Assembly: GCA_038213745.1 (NCBI GenBank)
Contig: JBBQSQ010000001.1
Location: 18,464-82,463 of the forward strand
From: Cytophagales bacterium
GTDB lineage: Bacteria > Bacteroidota > Bacteroidia > Cytophagales > Hymenobacteraceae
DNA: 64,000 bases
Reading direction: 5' to 3'
This document shows positions 3,933 to 10,504 of this stretch, one piece after another; within the stretch, counting starts at the first letter, position 1; the number at the start of each line of letters is the position of its first letter. A model generated the notes under the pieces. It was not told where the DNA came from, made no database searches, and saw nothing but the letters and a program-made list of their open reading frames with translations. The position numbers were made by a program, and so were the translations under genes.

Positions 3933-6542
3933 ATGGCGGAAGGCGAAAAAATCATTCCGATTAACATCGAAGACGAGATGCGGGGCGCCTACATCGACTA
4001 CTCGATGTCGGTTATCATCTCCCGGGCCCTGCCCGATGTGCGTGACGGCCTGAAGCCCGTGCACCGGCGCGTGCTCTACGGCATGAGCGAATTGGGCGTG
4101 GGCTACAACAAATCCTACAAGAAGTCGGCCCGTATTGTGGGTGAGGTGTTGGGTAAGTACCACCCGCACGGCGACAGCTCGGTGTATGACACCATGGTGC
4201 GCATGGCCCAGGACTGGAGCCTGCGCTATCCATTGGTGGACGGCCAGGGCAACTTCGGCTCCGTCGATGGCGACTCTCCGGCGGCCATGCGCTACACCGA
4301 GGCCCGGCTCAAGCGCATTGCCGACGAGATGCTCAACGACCTGGACAAGGACACCGTTGACTTCCAGCCCAATTTCGACGACTCGCTGGAGGAGCCCAGC
4401 GTGATGCCCGCCAAGTTTCCCAACCTGCTGGTAAACGGCACGTCGGGCATTGCCGTGGGCATGGCCACCAACATGGCCCCGCATAATCTAACGGAAGTCG
4501 TGAACGGCATCATCGCCTACCTCGCCAACCCTGAAATCACGGTGGCCGAGCTCATGCAGTACGTGACTGCCCCGGACTTTCCCACCGGCGGCATTATCTA
4601 CGGTTACGAAGGCGTGAAGCAGGCGTTCGAAACCGGCCGCGGCCGCGTGGTGATGCGCGCCAAAGCCAATTTCGAAACCAGCAAAACGGGCAAAGAGCAA
4701 ATCGTCGTCACCGAGATTCCCTACATGGTGAACAAGGCGTCGATGATTGAAAAGACCGCCGCGCTCATCAACGACAAGAAGATTGATGGCATTTCGGACA
4801 TGCGCGATGAGTCGGACCGCGACGGCATGCGCATTGTGTACGACCTGAAGCGCGACGCCATGCCCAGCGTGGTGCTCAACAACCTGTACAAGTACACGCA
4901 GCTGCAAAGCTCCTTCGGCGTCAACAACGTGTGCCTGGTAAAGGGCCGCCCCATGACGCTGAACTTGCAGCAGCTCATTCAGTATTTCGTTGAGCACCGG
5001 GCCGAGGTAATCGTTCGTCGTACCAAGTACGAGTTGGCCGAAGCTCAAAAGCGGGCCCATATCCTCGAAGGGCTGCTCATCGCCCTTGACCATTTGGACG
5101 AAGTCATCCAGCTTATTCGGGGCTCGCGTGACCCGGAGGTAGCTCGTGGCCAGCTCATCGAGCGCTTCTCCCTGAGCGAAGTGCAGGCCCGAGCCATTCT
5201 CGACATGCGCTTGCAGCGCCTCACGGGTCTGGAGCGCGATAAAATCGTGGCCGAGTACAACGAATTGATGAAGTTGATTGACCACCTGAACGCCGTTCTG
5301 GCGTCGGCTGAGTTGCAGCGCGGCATCATCAAAACTGAGCTCGAAGACATTCGGGAGCGGTACGGCGATGCCCGCCGCACGGAAATCAACTACATCGGCG
5401 GGGACTTCTCCACCGAAGACATGATTGCCGACGAGGCGATGGTCATCACCATTAGCCGCGAAGGTTACATCAAGCGCACCAATCTTGACGAGTACCGGGC
5501 CCAGGGTCGGGGCGGGGCGGGTTCGCGCGGGGCAATCTCCAAAAAGGACGACTTCACGGAGCACTTGTTCGTGGCTACGACGCACGAATACCTGTTATTC
5601 TTCACGGAGCTGGGCCGGGTATTCTGGCTGAAAGTGTATGAGGTGCCGGAAGGAGGGAAGGCCACCAAAGGCTTGCCCATCCAGAACCTCATCGAGATTC
5701 CGCGCGAAGACAAGGTCCGTTCCGTACTGAACGTGCGCGGTTTGAAAGACCCTGATTACCTCGAAAACACCTTCTTGATGTTTTGCACCGAGCAGGGCAC
5801 GGTGAAGAAAACTCCGCTTGAAGCATATTCGCGTCCCCGTACGGCTGGCATCAACGCCATTACCATTAACGAGGGCGACCGTATTCTCGACGTGCAATTG
5901 CTTGCCCCGAACTCGGAAGTAGTGTTGGCGTCGCGTTCCGGCCGCGCCGTGCGCTTTAATGAATCAAAGGTCCGCTCCATGGGCCGGGCTGCCGCTGGGG
6001 TACGCGGCATCAGCCTTTCCGAAAGCCCCGGTGACCGGGTTGTGGGCATGGTTTGCTTGGCCGACCCATCGCAGGAATTGCTGGTGGTGAGTGAAAACGG
6101 CTTTGGTAAGCGCAGCTCGTTGGACGAGTACCGCGTCACGAACCGAGGTGGCAAGGGCGTACGCGCCATGAAGCTCACGGACAAGACCGGTAACCTAGTG
6201 GCTATTAAGGACGTGAACGATACCGACGACCTGATGATTATCAACAAGTCGGGTATTACCATTCGTCTGCGAATGAGTGACTTGCGCACCATTGGACGAG
6301 CTACTCAGGGAGTTCGGCTTATCAAAATCGGCAGCAACGATGAGATTTCTTCCGTTGCCAAAGTGGCAGCTGAAGAGGAAAAAGATGAAACGGATGCCGC
6401 TTTGGTCGTAAGCGAAGGACCCGATTCGGAGGGGTTGGCGCTTGCGGAAAGTAGTTTTGGAGCAACTGCCGGTTTTACCGACGATGCGAGCGAGGATGCC
6501 GAACCGACGGACGACGAAGCGGAAGAAGCGGATTTGGCATAA
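3933..6542 (+). CDS. gyrA: DNA gyrase subunit A
   Basis: [33 protein letters not shown] catalytic Tyr, GyrA-box QGRGGAG, beta-pinwheel repeats, acidic tail. Confidence 0.98.
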
Positions 6543-6734
6543 TTGCTGAATAGGAGCGGGGCGGTCCATTTGGGCCGCCCCGTTTATTTTTGGCGAACTC
6601 TATGCCAAAAGTCTTCGTTTGACGGCAGGATAAATTTGTTGTTTCATTAATTTTTCTCACCTTTTCCTCTTAATCAAGGTTGCCGTGGCACCTACACGCT
6701 TGCAGGCCTTGCACAACACACTTTCCCAAACATT

Positions 6735-7895
6735 ATGAAGAAGACTTTTTTGACGCTTGCCGTTGCCGCCACGCTGGCCGCCGGCCGGCCGGCCCCGGTT
6801 TTGGCCCAAACATCGGCCGTCACCAATGCCATTCTTAATCAACGCACTGGTTTGCTCGACAAAGCGCGGGCTGATATTGATAAAGCCATTGTGAATGAGA
6901 AGACCAGTGGCAAAGCCAAAACCTGGTTTACGCGTGGCGAAGTCTATCAATCGATGCTGGAGAGCCCGATTTATGTTAAACAGTTGCAGCCAGGGGAAGG
7001 TCTGCAAAAAGCTTATGAGTCGTATGCCAAAACGGTTGAATTGGACACCAAAGACGGCGAATTCGGCAAGCAGGCAGTGTCTCACATGGATAATCTGTAT
7101 GGCCGCGCCTTTAATGATGCCGTGAACAGCTACAATGCGAAGGAATACGACAAGGCGATTGCCAGCTATAAATTAGCTTCTCAGATTAAGCCCCAGGACA
7201 CTACGGCCGTTTTGTACTCGGCGTATGCTTCAGAGGCAAAGCAGGATTACGCCGGTGCAAAAGCCAGCTACAATCAGTTGCTTGGTATGAACTACAAATC
7301 GGTGGTGCTTTATTCCCGTATGCTTCAGATAGCACGTCAGGAAAAGAATGATGCCGAAGCTGCAAAAGTTGTGCAACAAGCGTTGGCTGCTTATCCGGGC
7401 AATAAAACTTTCTTACTTGAAGATTTGAACATGTCATTGGCCAGTGGTAAAGGCGAGGATGCGTTGGGTAAAATCAACAAGTCTATCGCCGCTGACCCTA
7501 CCAATTCCAATCTTTATGCTGTGCGGGGTTCTATGTATGATTCGCAAAAGAAGCAGGATTTGGCGTTGGCTGACTATAAGAAGGCTGTTGAGCTAGACCC
7601 AAATAATTTTGACGCTCAGTTCAATTTGGGTGTTTACAATTACAATAAAGCTGCCGATGCATACACAAAGGCCAGTAAAATGGATTTGAAAACGTACCAA
7701 GCGTCTGGCAAAAAGTTTGAAGTAGAGGGAAAAAAGTACTTTGAGGCTTCGGTTCCCTATTTTGAAAAGTCATTGCAGCTACAGCCTGATGACCGCAATA
7801 CGTTAACTTCTTTGCAGAAAGTGTATTTTCGCTTGGGGCGTACGGCGGATTCCGAGCGCTTGAATGCAAAGTTGCAATCGTTGAATAAGAAGTAG
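6735..7895 (+). CDS. Exported tetratricopeptide repeat protein
   Basis: Signal peptide; TPR motifs (ALADYKKAVELDPNNFDAQFNLG). Confidence 0.85.
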   Translation: MKKTFLTLAVAATLAAGRPAPVLAQTSAVTNAILNQRTGLLDKARADIDKAIVNEKTSGKAKTWFTRGEVYQSMLESPIYVKQLQPGEGLQKAYESYAKTVELDTKDGEFGKQAVSHMDNLYGRAFNDAVNSYNAKEYDKAIASYKLASQIKPQDTTAVLYSAYASEAKQDYAGAKASYNQLLGMNYKSVVLYSRMLQIARQEKNDAEAAKVVQQALAAYPGNKTFLLEDLNMSLASGKGEDALGKINKSIAADPTNSNLYAVRGSMYDSQKKQDLALADYKKAVELDPNNFDAQFNLGVYNYNKAADAYTKASKMDLKTYQASGKKFEVEGKKYFEASVPYFEKSLQLQPDDRNTLTSLQKVYFRLGRTADSERLNAKLQSLNKK

Positions 7896-7930
7896 ATATC
7901 GTGTAGTTAGTGCTTGGGTTCTACTAGTGG

Positions 7931-7963
7931 GAGAGTCTGTTCGTATGAACGGGCTCTCTTTTT
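7931..7963 (+). terminator. Intrinsic terminator
   Basis: gagagtctgttc-gtat-gaacgggctctc followed by ttttt. Confidence 0.75.
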
Positions 7964-7991
7964 CATTTGCTACACTTAGAACGCAGATACA

Positions 7992-8019
7992 ACTTAACAT
8001 AATATAAATTATAAGACAA
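7992..8019 (-). other. dif: dif site (XerC/XerD chromosome dimer resolution site)
   Basis: Minus strand reads TTGTCTTATAA-TTTATA-TTATGTTAAGT: 11-6-11 layout; XerD arm differs by 1 nt from E. coli TTATGTTAAAT; intergenic; genes converge on it. Confidence 0.88.
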
Positions 8020-8695
8020 GAAATTGCAAATTCTTACCTAGCGATAGTTAGACTTACGTCCTGCACTGTATTCGACTAAATGCAGGTCCATCTCCAGTAG
8101 CTATGTCGCCATTACAACGATACTTCTTGCATGTTTGGAGCGTAGTTATCGCCCACGCGTTTCTTTCGCTTAAATAACTGTATTCATTCATGACACCATA
8201 AGTGGCTTTAGAGCATTATCATGCCTTTTTTATGTAGGTTTAGTGGTACTGTGCTGTTTTCAAGTAATTTCGGCGTCCCTCTCTTTGTTGGTATTTATAA
8301 ATTGAAACAGTTAATCGAGTTTAAAAAAGTAAAAAAATTGGGATAAATATTTACTTTTTGTGCTTAAATATATCACTATATACTTAACAATCATTCGCAC
8401 GTGCCAAATGGTATTTCATAAACGTAACTATTCTCACAAAGCTTGTGCAACTTAAGTATCTAAAAGTACTTTATTAATAAATTTCTTAGCATATAAATAG
8501 AAATGAGAATTGTAAAGTATTATCAAGAGATTGTTCTGAGCAGCATATTGGTTCACTAAGAACAGCATACTTAATAAAGACAGTATATAAAAGTATTAAA
8601 AAATCAGACTTCGTGTACTTTTATTTACCATTTTTTTAACTTTATTTCATCACGAACGTTATACCTTCAAAGTTCAAACTAATAAATAGGAGTAG

Positions 8696-9688
8696 ATGCC
8701 TAAATTAATAGACTATCCAAGAACATCCTATGCAGGAGCGTGGGAACTGGCAGAAATTACGGATGATACTGGCGGGAAGTGCACCGTAGAAACGGCTGCG
8801 CGGAAATTAAACCGGAAAGTCAGTGGGTCATTTAAAGCCATTATTGGGTCCGCTGTAAAGTTCGGCTTAATAACTAGCAAGAGGGAACTGCTAACTACCA
8901 CGACCCTTTTTAAACGAATAAAGCACGCATATGACAAGCAGGAAGAACTACTTTTCCACCGGGAAGCTTTCCTAACTCCACCCCTGTTTACTCAAATTTG
9001 CAGGAAATTTCGGTCAAGGGAACTACCAGTGCAAATGCTGGACATTATGCTAATCCGGGAATTTGGCGTCGAGGAAATAAATGCGCCTGGAGTAGCCAAA
9101 GCATTTGTGGATGGCTGCCGAATGGTCGGTGTCCTAGATGGGAGAAACATAATAGCCGATATCGATGCGTTTAAGACTACACATCCTATCAAACGTGAAC
9201 TGGCCAGTCCCCCGCCCTCTTCCAACGTTTTTCGGACTGTTCAGCCGAACATCAGTTCAACCCAACTTACGGATTCAAACGACAAAAGCACCGAATTCCC
9301 ATCGGATGAAACAAACGAATCATTATCCCCGAACGATGAGAGTCCTAGGAAAGTGGTAAAGACTCTGGTCGGCGCTAAAAAGCCCAACGGTGAAGACACG
9401 GATGCAATCGCAAGTTTATTTGGCTTCTTCGAAACCCCAAAGAGCGTATCCACACTTAGAACGACTGAGGCGGAAGACAAACCTGAACCAACAAGTGACC
9501 AACAGTATTACTCCCAAGAAAGACAATCAGTCGGGCCAGCCAGTCCTTTCCCGAGCACCGAACAAAAGGACTACCAGTTACAATTAAGTGGCCCTGGAGT
9601 GAATACGAACCTACTAATCACAGAAGAAGAAGACATAACAATTGCCATTGCTTTATTAGAGAAAATAAGGCGACAGTTGAAAAGCTAA
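8696..9688 (+). CDS. Hypothetical protein: N-terminal putative tandem winged-helix region, S/T/P/E-rich linker, small C-terminal domain
   Basis: 330-aa ORF with AGGAG upstream; HTH-like 'TVETAARKLNRKVSGSFKAIIGSAVKFGLI'; strong hairpin at the stop. Domain call is inference. Confidence 0.7.
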   Translation: MPKLIDYPRTSYAGAWELAEITDDTGGKCTVETAARKLNRKVSGSFKAIIGSAVKFGLITSKRELLTTTTLFKRIKHAYDKQEELLFHREAFLTPPLFTQICRKFRSRELPVQMLDIMLIREFGVEEINAPGVAKAFVDGCRMVGVLDGRNIIADIDAFKTTHPIKRELASPPPSSNVFRTVQPNISSTQLTDSNDKSTEFPSDETNESLSPNDESPRKVVKTLVGAKKPNGEDTDAIASLFGFFETPKSVSTLRTTEAEDKPEPTSDQQYYSQERQSVGPASPFPSTEQKDYQLQLSGPGVNTNLLITEEEDITIAIALLEKIRRQLKS

Positions 9689-9740
9689 CCGAATCCGGGC
9701 CGCATTGCAAGTGATGCAATGCGGCCCGGATTCGGTTAGC
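9684..9740. terminator. 26-bp perfect inverted repeat between convergent genes
   Basis: GCTAACCGAATCCGGGCCGCATTGCA-AGTGA-TGCAATGCGGCCCGGATTCGGTTAGC. Confidence 0.8.
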
Positions 9741-9769
9741 CGACCAAAAAACAAGTGCAAAAATGCCTA

Positions 9770-10450
9770 TTACTGCTCAGTTAAATGCCTGGTATTGGGC
9801 AATCGGTGGCGTTCCTGCAACACCTCAACAACATCTGCCATGGAAACACTAGATGCAACAAGCAGCACGAGTAAGTGATAAAGTAAATCAGCAACTTCTC
9901 CTGGCAACGTTTCGCGATGGCCTGCAACCGCATCAATAACCGTCTCGACGGCCTCCTCTCCTACTTTTTGAGCAATTTTAGGTAAGCCTTTCTTAAATAA
10001 TGAAACGGTGTAGGACGTGGGCGCGCGCTCCGGAAACTGGTGCCGCTCCACAATCAATCGTTCCAACGCAGCTAGGAAGCCAATTGGGGCGGCCGGGGCC
10101 TGTAGTTGTTCTGACTGCTCAAAGCAGCTCACCGTGCCCCGGTGACAAGTTGGCCCCGCCGGTAAGGCTCTAATCAGTACCGTGTCGGCGTCGCAATCGA
10201 TATGCAGACTAACGACCGTAAGAAAATTTCCGCTGCTCTCACCTTTCGTCCAGAGGCGGCCCTTGGAGCGGGAAAAAAACGTTACGCGTCCCTCCTGCTG
10301 CGTTTTGGTCCACGCTTCTTCATTTACATACCCTAACATGAGCACCTGCCCGGTGTCGGCGTCCTGAACAATTGCGGGTAGTAAACCGGTGACGGGGTCG
10401 AAGCGCAAGGCAGCAGGCCCCGTGGCTATTGCAGTGAATAAAGTAGTCAT
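9770..10450 (-). CDS. hisIE: Bifunctional phosphoribosyl-AMP cyclohydrolase / phosphoribosyl-ATP pyrophosphatase
   Basis: LWTKGESSGN, DCDADT, PTCH..CF, QKVGEEAVE, ADLLYH. Confidence 0.95.
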   Translation of the reverse strand: MTTLFTAIATGPAALRFDPVTGLLPAIVQDADTGQVLMLGYVNEEAWTKTQQEGRVTFFSRSKGRLWTKGESSGNFLTVVSLHIDCDADTVLIRALPAGPTCHRGTVSCFEQSEQLQAPAAPIGFLAALERLIVERHQFPERAPTSYTVSLFKKGLPKIAQKVGEEAVETVIDAVAGHRETLPGEVADLLYHLLVLLVASSVSMADVVEVLQERHRLPNTRHLTEQ

Positions 10451-10504
10451 AACATTAGAGAAAGAAGCCGGCGGGCACCAAATACCGGAAGCCAAACCAC
10501 ACGA

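Follow-up and report, generated by a model that had tools for sequence, protein, structure and literature searches.

The locus beside dif

The window that we analyze here (the whole stretch of 64,000 nucleotides) carries a dif site, the XerC/XerD chromosome dimer resolution site, at positions 7992 to 8019, followed by an AT-rich non-coding spacer (8020 to 8695, plus strand) and an open reading frame (ORF) at 8696 to 9688 on the plus strand that encodes a protein of 330 amino acids. The ORF map agrees with the first-pass annotation that this is the sole gene between dif and the his operon, with hisIE coming directly after it, and that it points away from dif, unlike gyrA and a TPR gene (plus strand) and the his genes (minus strand), all of which are oriented towards dif.

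Read from the sequence, dif lies on the minus strand in the usual 11-6-11 layout, with the arms TTGTCTTATAA and TTATGTTAAGT on either side of the central TTTATA; TTATGTTAAGT is the XerD arm, and the XerC arm is turned towards the ORF. The site occurs once in the 4.49-Mb assembly, where the runner-up match has 6 mismatches, and it is kept in 40 of the 46 clade loci. Nine of ten other genomes of the order likewise hold one copy each, while the tenth has weaker additional matches. The host genome encodes XerD, a second Xer-like recombinase and FtsK-gamma. In the complete genome G092 the sampled GC skew switches from plus to minus at dif, which is the region of the skew maximum; on the window's own 108-kb contig the skew is too weak to interpret. 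We use sampled skew here since dnaA, tried as an origin marker, lies about 90 degrees from dif in four of five complete genomes and is therefore useless for placing the terminus. The element at 7992 to 8019 is a genuine dif site.

The spacer that separates dif from the gene, and that holds the gene's regulatory region, measures 676 bp (the earlier figure was about 680 bp) and is as AT-rich as described, with 32% GC overall and a minimum of 26% in the composition profile. Equivalent spacers in 40 loci range from 538 to 1473 bp and from 31 to 52% GC, and besides dif only two short blocks of them are conserved. An AGGAG is indeed present at 8688 to 8692 on the plus strand, 3 nt ahead of the ATG, but it is species-specific and found at none of the 39 other loci. 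The perfect, GC-rich 26-bp hairpin reported over the stop codon is also there (9684 to 9740, −60.9 kcal/mol): 9684–9709 pairs with 9715–9740 around a loop of 5 nt and encloses the stop codon at 9686–9688. Its T-rich tail sits on the minus strand, so it is at least equally good as a terminator of hisIE, and its sequence is not kept in orthologous loci; it is probably a terminator shared by the two genes. An Rfam search of 7800 to 9900 returned only spurious miRNA models, matching this hairpin.

A core gene of Hymenobacter and its sister genus

The gene was at first described as an orphan, which it is not. A word-index search recovers 686 homologues, a total of 489 cluster representatives are on record, and the gene is present in 98 of 101 Hymenobacter genomes at one locus each (some of these single loci appear as two matches, split by a variable linker), in 84 of the 85 high-quality genomes and in all 11 genomes of the sister genus. 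The order gyrA-TPR-dif-(AT-rich spacer)-gene is constant throughout the clade, and across the two genera the gene sits 0.5–1.5 kb from dif on its XerC-arm side. In the genome G111 a 10.4-kb element, itself flanked in direct orientation by dif and a degenerate dif, parts the gene from the intact dif. The gene belongs, in single copy, to the core genome of the Hymenobacter clade, and its position at the side of dif is invariant there. In other genera of the family, which possess dif and Xer, gyrA-TPR likewise lies near dif, but the opposite side is occupied by ordinary genes and carries no homologue. It is important to note that the clade loci form one inherited synteny block, so the linkage to dif cannot count as separate evidence for a functional connection.

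A tandem winged-helix protein

The AlphaFold (AF2) model agrees with the three-part layout that had been read from the sequence, a folded N-terminus, a disordered linker and a C-terminal beta-beta-helix, and the predicted structure has the proposed arrangement of a domain of DNA-binding type, a linker and a small C-terminal module. The N-terminal domain (amino acids 1–160, encoded by 8696 to 9175 on the plus strand, pLDDT about 97) is modeled as two winged-helix units in tandem. It is followed by an acidic linker rich in Pro, Thr, Ala and Ser (161–290; 9176 to 9565), predicted to be disordered from 165 to 290 with a pLDDT of about 47–65, and by a mini-domain of a beta-hairpin and a helix with a GPG turn (291–330, then the stop; 9566 to 9688), in which the beta-beta-helix of residues 293–329 is modeled at a pLDDT above 90 (91–95).

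In the model the first unit, WH1, is a three-helix bundle plus wing (helices 12–24, 31–37 and 44–55, strands 59–62 and 65–68), and it superposes on the MarR-type winged helix of 7wze with Z 10.1 and an rmsd of 1.7 Å over 67 residues. WH1 is basic, with conserved K37, R40, K41, K55, R63, K73 and K76 and Lys/Arg on helix 3 and the wing; WH2 is about neutral, and Ser, Gly and Ala are abundant at recognition-helix positions. The linker carries a net charge of −7 in the window's protein (family median −4) and is 115–159 residues long in orthologues and only 20–60 in the majority of distant relatives. Among 119 orthologues, identity is about 89% in the N-domain, which equals the conservation of housekeeping neighbors, 74% in the C-domain and 21% in the linker, and G299, P300 and D313 are at least 90% conserved family-wide. 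The N- and C-domains are under strong purifying selection. Searches of the protein against Pfam, NCBIfam, PADLOC and PHROGs gave nothing usable, a profile search of the PDB nothing below E 0.1, and Foldseek against the PDB only weak winged-helix rows.

From the model and the conserved residues we infer that the N-domain binds DNA and that the C-terminal module drives dimerization or oligomerization. Winged helices can also bind proteins or ligands, and the nearest sequence family, AAA_assoc_C, which is not known to act on DNA, forms the C-terminal part of ABC ATPases. The N-domain could be a regulatory module that binds ligands or proteins, the role assumed for AAA_assoc_C in those ATPases, with the whole protein serving as a scaffold or adaptor. 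Weak AAA_assoc_C matches in 10 of 62 family members, an AAA_assoc_C-carrying ABC-ATPase cluster that aligns to residues 1–158, the small residues at the recognition-helix positions and the neutral WH2 are all what such a role would predict. We nevertheless regard it as improbable: the basic WH1 has its conserved Lys and Arg at the usual DNA-contact positions, the top structural matches are DNA-bound MarR-type regulators, FokI and BrxA, and the gene's own upstream region contains a conserved palindrome.

Operator-like repeats ahead of the gene

The upstream region of the window contains two inverted repeats, to which we assign no strand. The proximal one, O1 (8582 to 8629), consists of AGTATATAAAAGTA, a 20-nt spacer and TACTTTTATTTACC, and its center lies about 90 bp 5′ of the ATG (about 105 bp in typical relatives). 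The distal one, O2 (8326 to 8357), has the form AAAGTA-N20-TACTTT. By pattern count this form occurs only 14 times in the genome, two of them within the spacer at identical spacing. Many relatives also have a second, distal repeat pair at about −300 to −390. In a shuffle test restricted to the 200 nt ahead of the gene, the top inverted repeat outdoes at least 95% of shuffled sequences in 25 of 40 loci, which share both the motif and its position; the conserved 14-nt inverted arms are located at −85 to −150, and ten loci have arms that are a perfect 14/14. The AAGTA/TACTT half-sites are phased at 10 bp. The hexamer occurs 145 times against 36 expected, but near dif the density of the AAAGTA hexamer is lower yet not zero in genera without the gene, and the hexamer count alone is therefore partly an effect of composition. 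The phased palindrome, rather than the hexamer count, is the specific feature. In G111 the inverted repeat travels with the gene and not with the intact dif.

These phased AAGTA/TACTT repeats look like an operator. In six genomes AAAGTA...TACTTT is enriched neither genome-wide nor near dif, and no regulon or Ter-like array of it was found; it is the only candidate binding motif for the protein and appears local to the gene's own promoter. The inverted repeat could instead serve another regulator or form an RNA hairpin.

The same repeats bring to mind a replication-fork barrier. In Bacillus, the rtp gene is preceded by the repeats IRI and IRII, a layout matching that of a winged-helix gene with upstream inverted repeats. 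Our protein would then be a functional analogue of RTP, and the repeats would be Ter sites as well as an operator. A winged-helix protein encoded in the terminus region, with two inverted-repeat sites directly 5′ of its own gene, is what one would expect of such a system. We find this very improbable: the motif is not enriched around the terminus or genome-wide, both sites, being near-palindromic, lack an evident polarity, relatives in other lineages lie away from termini, and comparisons with the PDB, Pfam and known structures give no match to RTP or Tus at the level of sequence or fold.

A second dif-like site and a possible role at dif

In 24 of 46 related loci, including all 11 of the sister genus, the gene is closely followed by a degenerate dif in inverted orientation. 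Its XerD arm, ATTATGTTAA, is conserved and lies 36–256 bp beyond the stop codon (979 bp in one locus). In G029 the 10-mer of this arm has only two copies in 4.4 Mb, one on each side of the gene. The spacer of the downstream site is collapsed in most loci and its XerC arm is degenerate; the site is near-complete in L021 only. The window and its whole subclade are without it. With the site missing there and its spacer mostly collapsed, an origin of the gene as a "module" is a reconstruction.

Could the protein be a terminus- or Xer-associated factor that acts at dif with XerD, XerC or FtsK? It might serve as an accessory on the side of the XerC arm, in the manner of PepA/ArgR at cer, act as an activator or bridge like XafT, protect dif against incoming IMEX (integrative elements exploiting Xer), or assist at the XerD-only sites where SMC is unloaded. 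The invariable closeness of the gene to dif, on the same side in two genera, fits such a factor, as do the two XerD arms that bracket it in about half of the loci, the more so since the downstream arm is conserved although the 3′-3′ intergenic gap needs no promoter. Housekeeping-level conservation of the N-domain is expected of a partner of conserved machinery, and there are precedents in Xer accessory and activating proteins and in XerD-only sites (PMC9226527). Yet the synteny block counts as one observation, the homologues examined outside the clade all lie away from dif, dif and Xer occur without the gene in other genera of the family, the gene of G111 is intact despite its separation from dif, and the second XerD arm is absent from the window's own subclade. 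On balance we consider a role at dif possible but unlikely. A specific version, in which a lineage-specific Bacteroidota terminus factor partners XerD both at dif and at the inverted site, with its XerD arm, that brackets the gene, controlling Xer recombination or IMEX entry or marking an SMC-unloading site as a MatP- or XafT-type counterpart built on a different fold, strikes us as rather doubtful.

Relatives outside the clade

The first-pass annotation had asked whether homologues are core and adjacent to dif or sporadic. In Hymenobacter and its sister genus they are core and dif-adjacent, but none of about 20 loci examined outside the clade is near dif: the homologues are on other contigs or have no dif-like site within 6–8 kb. 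The linkage is thus a clade-specific synteny and not a trait of the family. Dif-like sites near distant homologues amount to 9-mers with one mismatch, at the frequency expected by chance in AT-rich DNA; none was found at L114–L116, and a 12-nt match at L096 is, by our own estimate, not significant once corrected for 16 loci. Relatives, of about 240 amino acids, are rare (3 of about 280 Cytophagales genomes outside the family, and 7 of 398 non-Hymenobacter genomes phylum-wide) and located in low-GC islets. In two other lineages the position is also fixed, beside gcvP and after mutS. Neighbors in other lineages include weak Abi_2, an AAA_15 ATPase, ParE and CcdAB modules. A PMT_2 neighbor in two distant lineages was rejected as a meaningful association: the two PMT_2 proteins are unrelated, so the shared neighborhood is a coincidence.

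The N-domain also occurs fused to a CAP12/Pycsar TIR domain (L107:1100–2179, PF10137, E 3e-19) and to a weak nucleoside-deoxyribosyltransferase-like domain, and a TIR-bearing Atlas cluster is among its matches. These fusions, the rare and patchy family, the low-GC islets and the Abi_2, AAA_15, ParE and CcdAB neighbors would suit a single-gene anti-phage or addiction-type cargo whose N-domain senses foreign nucleic acid. But the protein is without an effector domain and matches no PADLOC family and no PHROG; nearly every genome of the genus has the gene, once and in conserved synteny, and its N-domain is 89% conserved, the opposite of defense-gene turnover; and it has no copies among the plasmids (72,556) or phages (50,697) searched. 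We hold this explanation to be decidedly unlikely. Of the earlier proposal of a cargo captured at dif through Xer, the capture gains from the inverted degenerate dif of the 24 loci, while the anti-phage part gains no support.

Interpretation

The reading that we prefer, and to which we give about an even chance, is an autoregulated DNA-binding protein of an uncharacterized family that was captured at dif in the ancestor of the clade and then fixed. In this reading the tandem winged helices of the N-domain are joined by the acidic, disordered linker to a small beta-beta-alpha module at the C-terminus, through which the protein may dimerize or oligomerize; as a sequence-specific binder it would occupy the phased inverted AAGTA/TACTT repeats ahead of its own start codon and so, we infer, regulate itself. 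The gene and its AT-rich leader would have entered the chromosome at dif in the ancestor that Hymenobacter shares with the sister genus, in the form of a cassette with dif at one end and an inverted dif-like site at the other, comparable to a "C-type dif module", and later been fixed. Capture appears favored by the far side of dif without the gene in other genera, together with the inverted XerD arm and the agreement of this layout with a C module as published; the lack of copies on the plasmids and phages searched speaks against the preferred reading. The fixed positions beside gcvP and after mutS favor a cellular role over one of fast turnover. An acidic linker would be unusual in a nucleoid protein.

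We know of no studies of chromosome dimer resolution or terminus organization in Bacteroidota. The locus pairs a defined dif with a strongly conserved, unnamed protein of DNA-binding type fixed alongside, and many species add a second, XerD-arm-only site beside the gene. A protein that acts with Xer would be a terminus factor of a novel type. Failing that, the locus is still, outside Acinetobacter, the first candidate for a "dif module"-like cassette that became fixed at the dif of a chromosome. Either way it defines a new protein family of about 490 cluster representatives, whose N-domain is shared with TIR-type effector proteins.

Comparison with known systems

The first-pass annotation had proposed a functional analogue of MatP. 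MatP and our protein, a putative DNA binder, are alike in being small, in a separate part for oligomerization (predicted here) and in a proposed action at the terminus. A MatP-like fold is excluded, as the AF2 model has no four-helix bundle, ribbon-helix-helix or coiled coil and there is no Pfam or NCBIfam match, and dispersed cognate sites like those of MatP were not found for the sole candidate motif in six genomes. The matP gene itself is not known to be linked to dif.

XafT of TLC-phi and the accessory proteins of cer and psi act beside an Xer site, have a dimerization part and are encoded by, or act on, elements that exploit Xer (PMC9226527); Pfam and PDB profile searches detect no homology to them. 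In the C module of Acinetobacter, a cassette is enclosed by a pair of XerC/XerD sites in inverse orientation, their XerC arms facing inward (PMC13141974), and in 24 of 46 loci the gene and its leader are likewise placed between inverse Xer sites with the XerC arms inside. Here the arrangement is chromosomal, at the main dif and in Bacteroidota, and the second site is absent from the window. A C module has two complete 11-6-11 sites, whereas our downstream site has a collapsed spacer and a degenerate XerC arm; dif modules move among replicons and positions, whereas this gene always follows gyrA-TPR-dif, has no plasmid or phage match and shows no trace of current mobility. An IMEX, with its directly repeated dif or dif-like flanks, was rejected as an identity for the gene, the flanking sites of which are inverted.

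AAA_assoc_C (PF09821) is the only recurrent Pfam family among the relatives (best E 1e-4, weak), and its Atlas fold match to the N-domain has TM 0.40 by query; the window's own protein does not match the Pfam model even at E 10. The domain is N-terminal and free-standing here, whereas in that family it is the tail of an ABC ATPase. The tandem winged helices of BrxA (DUF1819, BREX) match the N-domain with Z 8.3 over 155 residues (7zge), and among the FokI and N.BspD6I recognition domains 2fok matches the whole of it with Z 8.8 over 160, values that common arrangements also reach; no sequence similarity accompanies them, and the protein here has no nuclease. Nor is there a BREX or restriction context at the locus, whose neighbors are TPR, dif and hisIE, with no PADLOC match.

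MarR-type regulators resemble the protein in that WH1 (residues 11–78) superposes on them (Z 9–10, rmsd 1.6–2.1 Å) and in having a palindromic site upstream. They differ in that there is no membership at the level of sequence and in having one winged helix where two are fused here. Their dimer interface is helical, whereas any dimerization of our protein would run through a remote C-terminal beta-beta-alpha module at the far end of a 130-residue disordered linker.

The locus and its dif site

The dif-adjacent gene (8696-9688, plus strand, 330 aa) is preceded on its left by gyrA (3933-6542, plus strand) and a TPR lipoprotein-like gene (6735-7895, plus strand), and is followed on its right by hisIE (9770-10495, minus strand) and then the rest of the his operon. 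The dif site occupies 7992-8019 in an 11-6-11 arrangement that reads, on the minus strand, TTGTCTTATAA, TTTATA and TTATGTTAAGT. From dif to the ATG runs an AT-rich spacer of 676 bp with 32% GC (minimum 26%), against 55-60% GC in the flanks. An AGGAG lies 3 nt before the ATG (8688-8692) and is present there in none of 39 other loci. A hairpin with a perfect 26-bp stem (9684-9709 paired with 9715-9740) spans the stop codon; since the minus strand carries its T-rich tail, it is no less a terminator of hisIE than of this gene. On a broader scale (5700-10500), GC content declines gradually toward dif through the 3' portion of gyrA and through the TPR gene, from about 58% to about 43%, and rises again through hisIE, and relatives also have a regional AT enrichment centred on dif.

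We accept the site as dif. By our own reading its XerD arm is identical to that of E. coli dif at 9 of 11 positions, and the 26-nt core is single-copy in the 4.49-Mb assembly. The core also occurs once per genome in nine of ten other genomes of the order, the tenth having two weaker, two-mismatch matches in addition, while reversed-pattern controls return 0-2 hits. In the complete genome G092, GC skew measured in 20-kb samples is positive between 0 and 1.33 Mb (near zero in two of them) and negative between 1.52 and 2.85 Mb; over a contiguous 400 kb the cumulative skew climbs up to about 1.43 Mb, reaches a plateau and descends past about 1.50 Mb, with the dif-type site at 1,435,017. Among the gene products of the window's genome are XerD (scoring above the curated cut-off), another Xer-like recombinase and an FtsK with a gamma domain.

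Two side observations concern the chromosome at large. The dnaA gene lies about a quarter of the chromosome (about 0.24-0.30) from dif in four of five complete genomes (G016, G029, G048, G077 and G092) and is thus no guide to the origin here; since the GC-skew minimum of G092 (about 2.9-3.0 Mb) is also some 1.3 Mb from its dnaA (0.53 Mb), the origin is probably not beside dnaA in Hymenobacter. Outside the window, the same assembly (G000) carries extra partial dif-like sequences at C40:23948, C31:3691 and C17:10709: one consists of an XerD arm and spacer with six mismatches overall, two are exact copies of ATTATGTTAA, and the C31 copy resembles the site found downstream of the gene in other species.

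A winged-helix protein and a likely operator

The protein matches no family in Pfam, NCBIfam, PADLOC or PHROG. An AlphaFold2 model built on a 62-sequence alignment has two winged-helix units in residues 1-160 (pLDDT about 97), disorder in residues 165-290 and a beta-hairpin plus helix in residues 293-329 (pLDDT > 90), in agreement with the folded HTH/wing N-terminus, disordered linker and beta-beta-helix C-terminus described in the first-pass annotation. The first winged helix superposes on MarR-type regulators (Z 10.1, rmsd 1.7 A), and its overall charge is positive, conserved Lys/Arg residues being located at helix 3 and the wing. The linker, by charge, is acidic. Identity among 119 orthologues is 89% in the N-domain and 74% in the C-module, and 21% in the linker, whose length ranges from 115 to 159 aa. 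From these features we infer that the protein binds DNA and self-associates. Membership of the MatP family is excluded on fold.

The whole N-domain also aligns with the recognition domains of FokI and N.BspD6I (Z 8.8 and 8.0) and with BrxA (Z 8.3), all in the range of common arrangements. AAA_assoc_C gives weak matches in 10 of the 62 family members, and an Atlas cluster of ABC ATPases bearing this domain aligns to residues 1-158. Set beside the positively charged first winged helix, a non-DNA-binding adaptor is a weaker reading of the protein, and one that we consider quite improbable.

Beyond dif, conservation in the spacer is limited to two short blocks, which together form an inverted repeat centred about 105 bp upstream of the ATG. 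Its arms, of which AAGTATAAAAAAGT and ACTTTTTTATACTT are an example, consist of AAGTA/TACTT half-sites set in 10-bp phase, and in many loci another pair is present near -330. The window's two operator-like repeats lie at 8326-8357 and 8582-8629. In 25 of 40 loci, the strongest 14-nt inverted repeat of the final 200 nt before the ATG outscores no fewer than 95% of shuffles; the arms are perfect in ten loci, and the hexamer of the repeat occurs 145 times where 36 are expected; in six genomes the pattern is not enriched elsewhere. In G111, a genome with an insertion at dif, the repeat travels with the gene and not with the intact dif. The repeat is likely an operator, and its simplest reading would be autoregulation by a dimeric or tetrameric winged-helix protein. 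That the protein acts as an RTP-like fork barrier is a weaker reading that we consider very unlikely indeed.

Distribution of the family and meaning of the dif linkage

The source names of the protein's matches indicate that the window's organism is itself a Hymenobacter. The gene had been called an orphan, which is wrong: it occurs at a single locus in 98 of 101 Hymenobacter genomes (84 of the 85 of high quality) and in all 11 genomes of the sister genus, and the family comprises 489 cluster representatives overall. It is found in 0/52, 0/18, 0/8 and 0/4 genomes of four other genera of the same family, in 3 of about 280 genomes of the order outside its own family, and in 7 of 398 non-Hymenobacter genomes of the phylum. 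The cluster representatives, from an exhaustive search, are mostly about 240 aa long and combine the N- and C-modules seen here with a short linker; nearly all are metagenomic, one named record comes from Desulfatiglandales, and 'hypothetical' is the annotation throughout. No homologue was found on 72,556 plasmids or in 50,697 phage genomes.

Within the clade of Hymenobacter and its sister genus, 40 of 46 loci have dif, then an AT-rich spacer of 538-1473 bp, then the gene oriented away from dif, with gyrA and the TPR gene across dif from it wherever the fetched flank extends far enough; of the other six loci, five are cut by contig ends and the sixth has the G111 insertion. The gyrA-TPR-dif half is common to genera without the gene, where ordinary genes (SDR, aldehyde dehydrogenase, DUF4136, DUF2459) lie across dif, so that the clade counts as one evolutionary observation; its linkage is therefore a single gain beside dif followed by vertical inheritance. 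Outside the clade, homologues in G115, G225, G323 and G334 are on a different contig from dif, the 6-8 kb around the homologue in seven phylum-level loci contain no dif-like site, and the metagenomic loci likewise have none nearby. Dif adjacency is thus not a family property, and it neither supports nor excludes a terminus function in Hymenobacter. A role of the protein in Xer recombination or at the terminus is the most interesting of the remaining readings, albeit an unlikely one.

Distant homologues are located in low-GC islets: two related contigs have one adjoining gcvP, another homologue is beside a weak Abi_2 gene and another beside an AAA_15 ATPase, and no partner gene recurs among these contexts. 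Fixed positions in three lineages, together with a very slowly evolving N-domain, argue for a cellular role over a fast-turnover defence role; we give defence, too, a small chance of being correct.

Some relatives differ in architecture or setting. The tandem winged-helix N-domain is also part of two fusions: in L107:1100-2179 (G619) an acidic linker connects it to a CAP12/Pycsar-type TIR domain (E 3e-19), and in L104:6566-7660 (G837) its partner is a weak nucleoside 2-deoxyribosyltransferase-like domain. Each fusion is likely a defence effector that works as a single protein. In two high-GC metagenomic genomes that are related to each other, a homologue directly follows mutS in a low-GC islet (L114:7156-7682, L115:9094-9674), and the adjoining slot holds ParE with an antitoxin in one and CcdAB in the other, which suggests a small insertion hotspot. 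One Bacteroidota genome (G881:C24) has two paralogues about 12 kb apart (L101:8373-9143, L102:1722-2624), one a full-length short form and one with the N-domain alone recognisable.

Discussion

Apart from the word 'orphan', the original observation was largely right. Our most likely reading, in which we have middling confidence, is that the gene encodes an autoregulated DNA-binding protein of a new, patchy family, and that the ancestor of the Hymenobacter clade acquired it by capture at dif, after which it became fixed.

In G111 a 10.4-kb element (L100:1253-11675; G111:C3, about 1029252-1039675) lies between an intact dif, adjoining the TPR gene and gyrA, and a degenerate dif with a broken XerD arm, adjoining the winged-helix gene. 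This pair of sites is the signature of Xer-mediated integration and counts toward our acceptance of the site as dif. The element encodes a glucosaminidase, an M15 peptidase and several ORFs without a Pfam match, and is probably a small Xer-integrated prophage or IMEX.

On the other side of the gene, 24 of the 46 clade loci (all 11 of the sister genus and the more divergent Hymenobacter; including L021, L023-24, L026, L028-29, L076-L086 and L091-L094, e.g. G029:C1:3220688) have a downstream XerD arm, ATTATGTTAA, that is perfectly conserved; its distance from the stop codon is 36-256 bp in 23 loci and 979 bp in L092. The site is inverted relative to dif, with the XerC arms toward the gene; its remainder is degenerate and its spacer collapsed, although it is nearly complete in L021. 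The 10-mer has 2-6 copies per genome, and the only two in G029 flank the gene. Among the loci compared, the window's subclade lacks the site. The alternative in the first-pass annotation, that the gene is cargo (anti-phage, for example) captured at dif through Xer, gains from this inverted site as regards capture; the site lends nothing to the anti-phage part.

The site falls within the 3'-3' gap adjoining an ArnT-like cluster. In the sister genus and divergent Hymenobacter this cluster (L076:8127-12491, L093:8327-11277 and equivalents) places an ArnT/PMT_2-type glycosyltransferase, an epimerase/dehydratase, a GT2 and a LAB_N protein between the gene and hisIE. The window's assembly (88% complete) yielded neither the cluster nor a PMT_2 homologue, and a deletion in the subclade has therefore probably removed the cluster along with the second dif-like site.

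The downstream site could be what is left of a dif-module boundary, or else a site for XerD only. A gene placed between dif and an inverted dif-like site has the same geometry as the 'C module' of Acinetobacter (PMC13141974), and a conserved XerD-only site recalls the XerD sites of Bacillus, which are reported to unload SMC according to the summary in PMC9226527.
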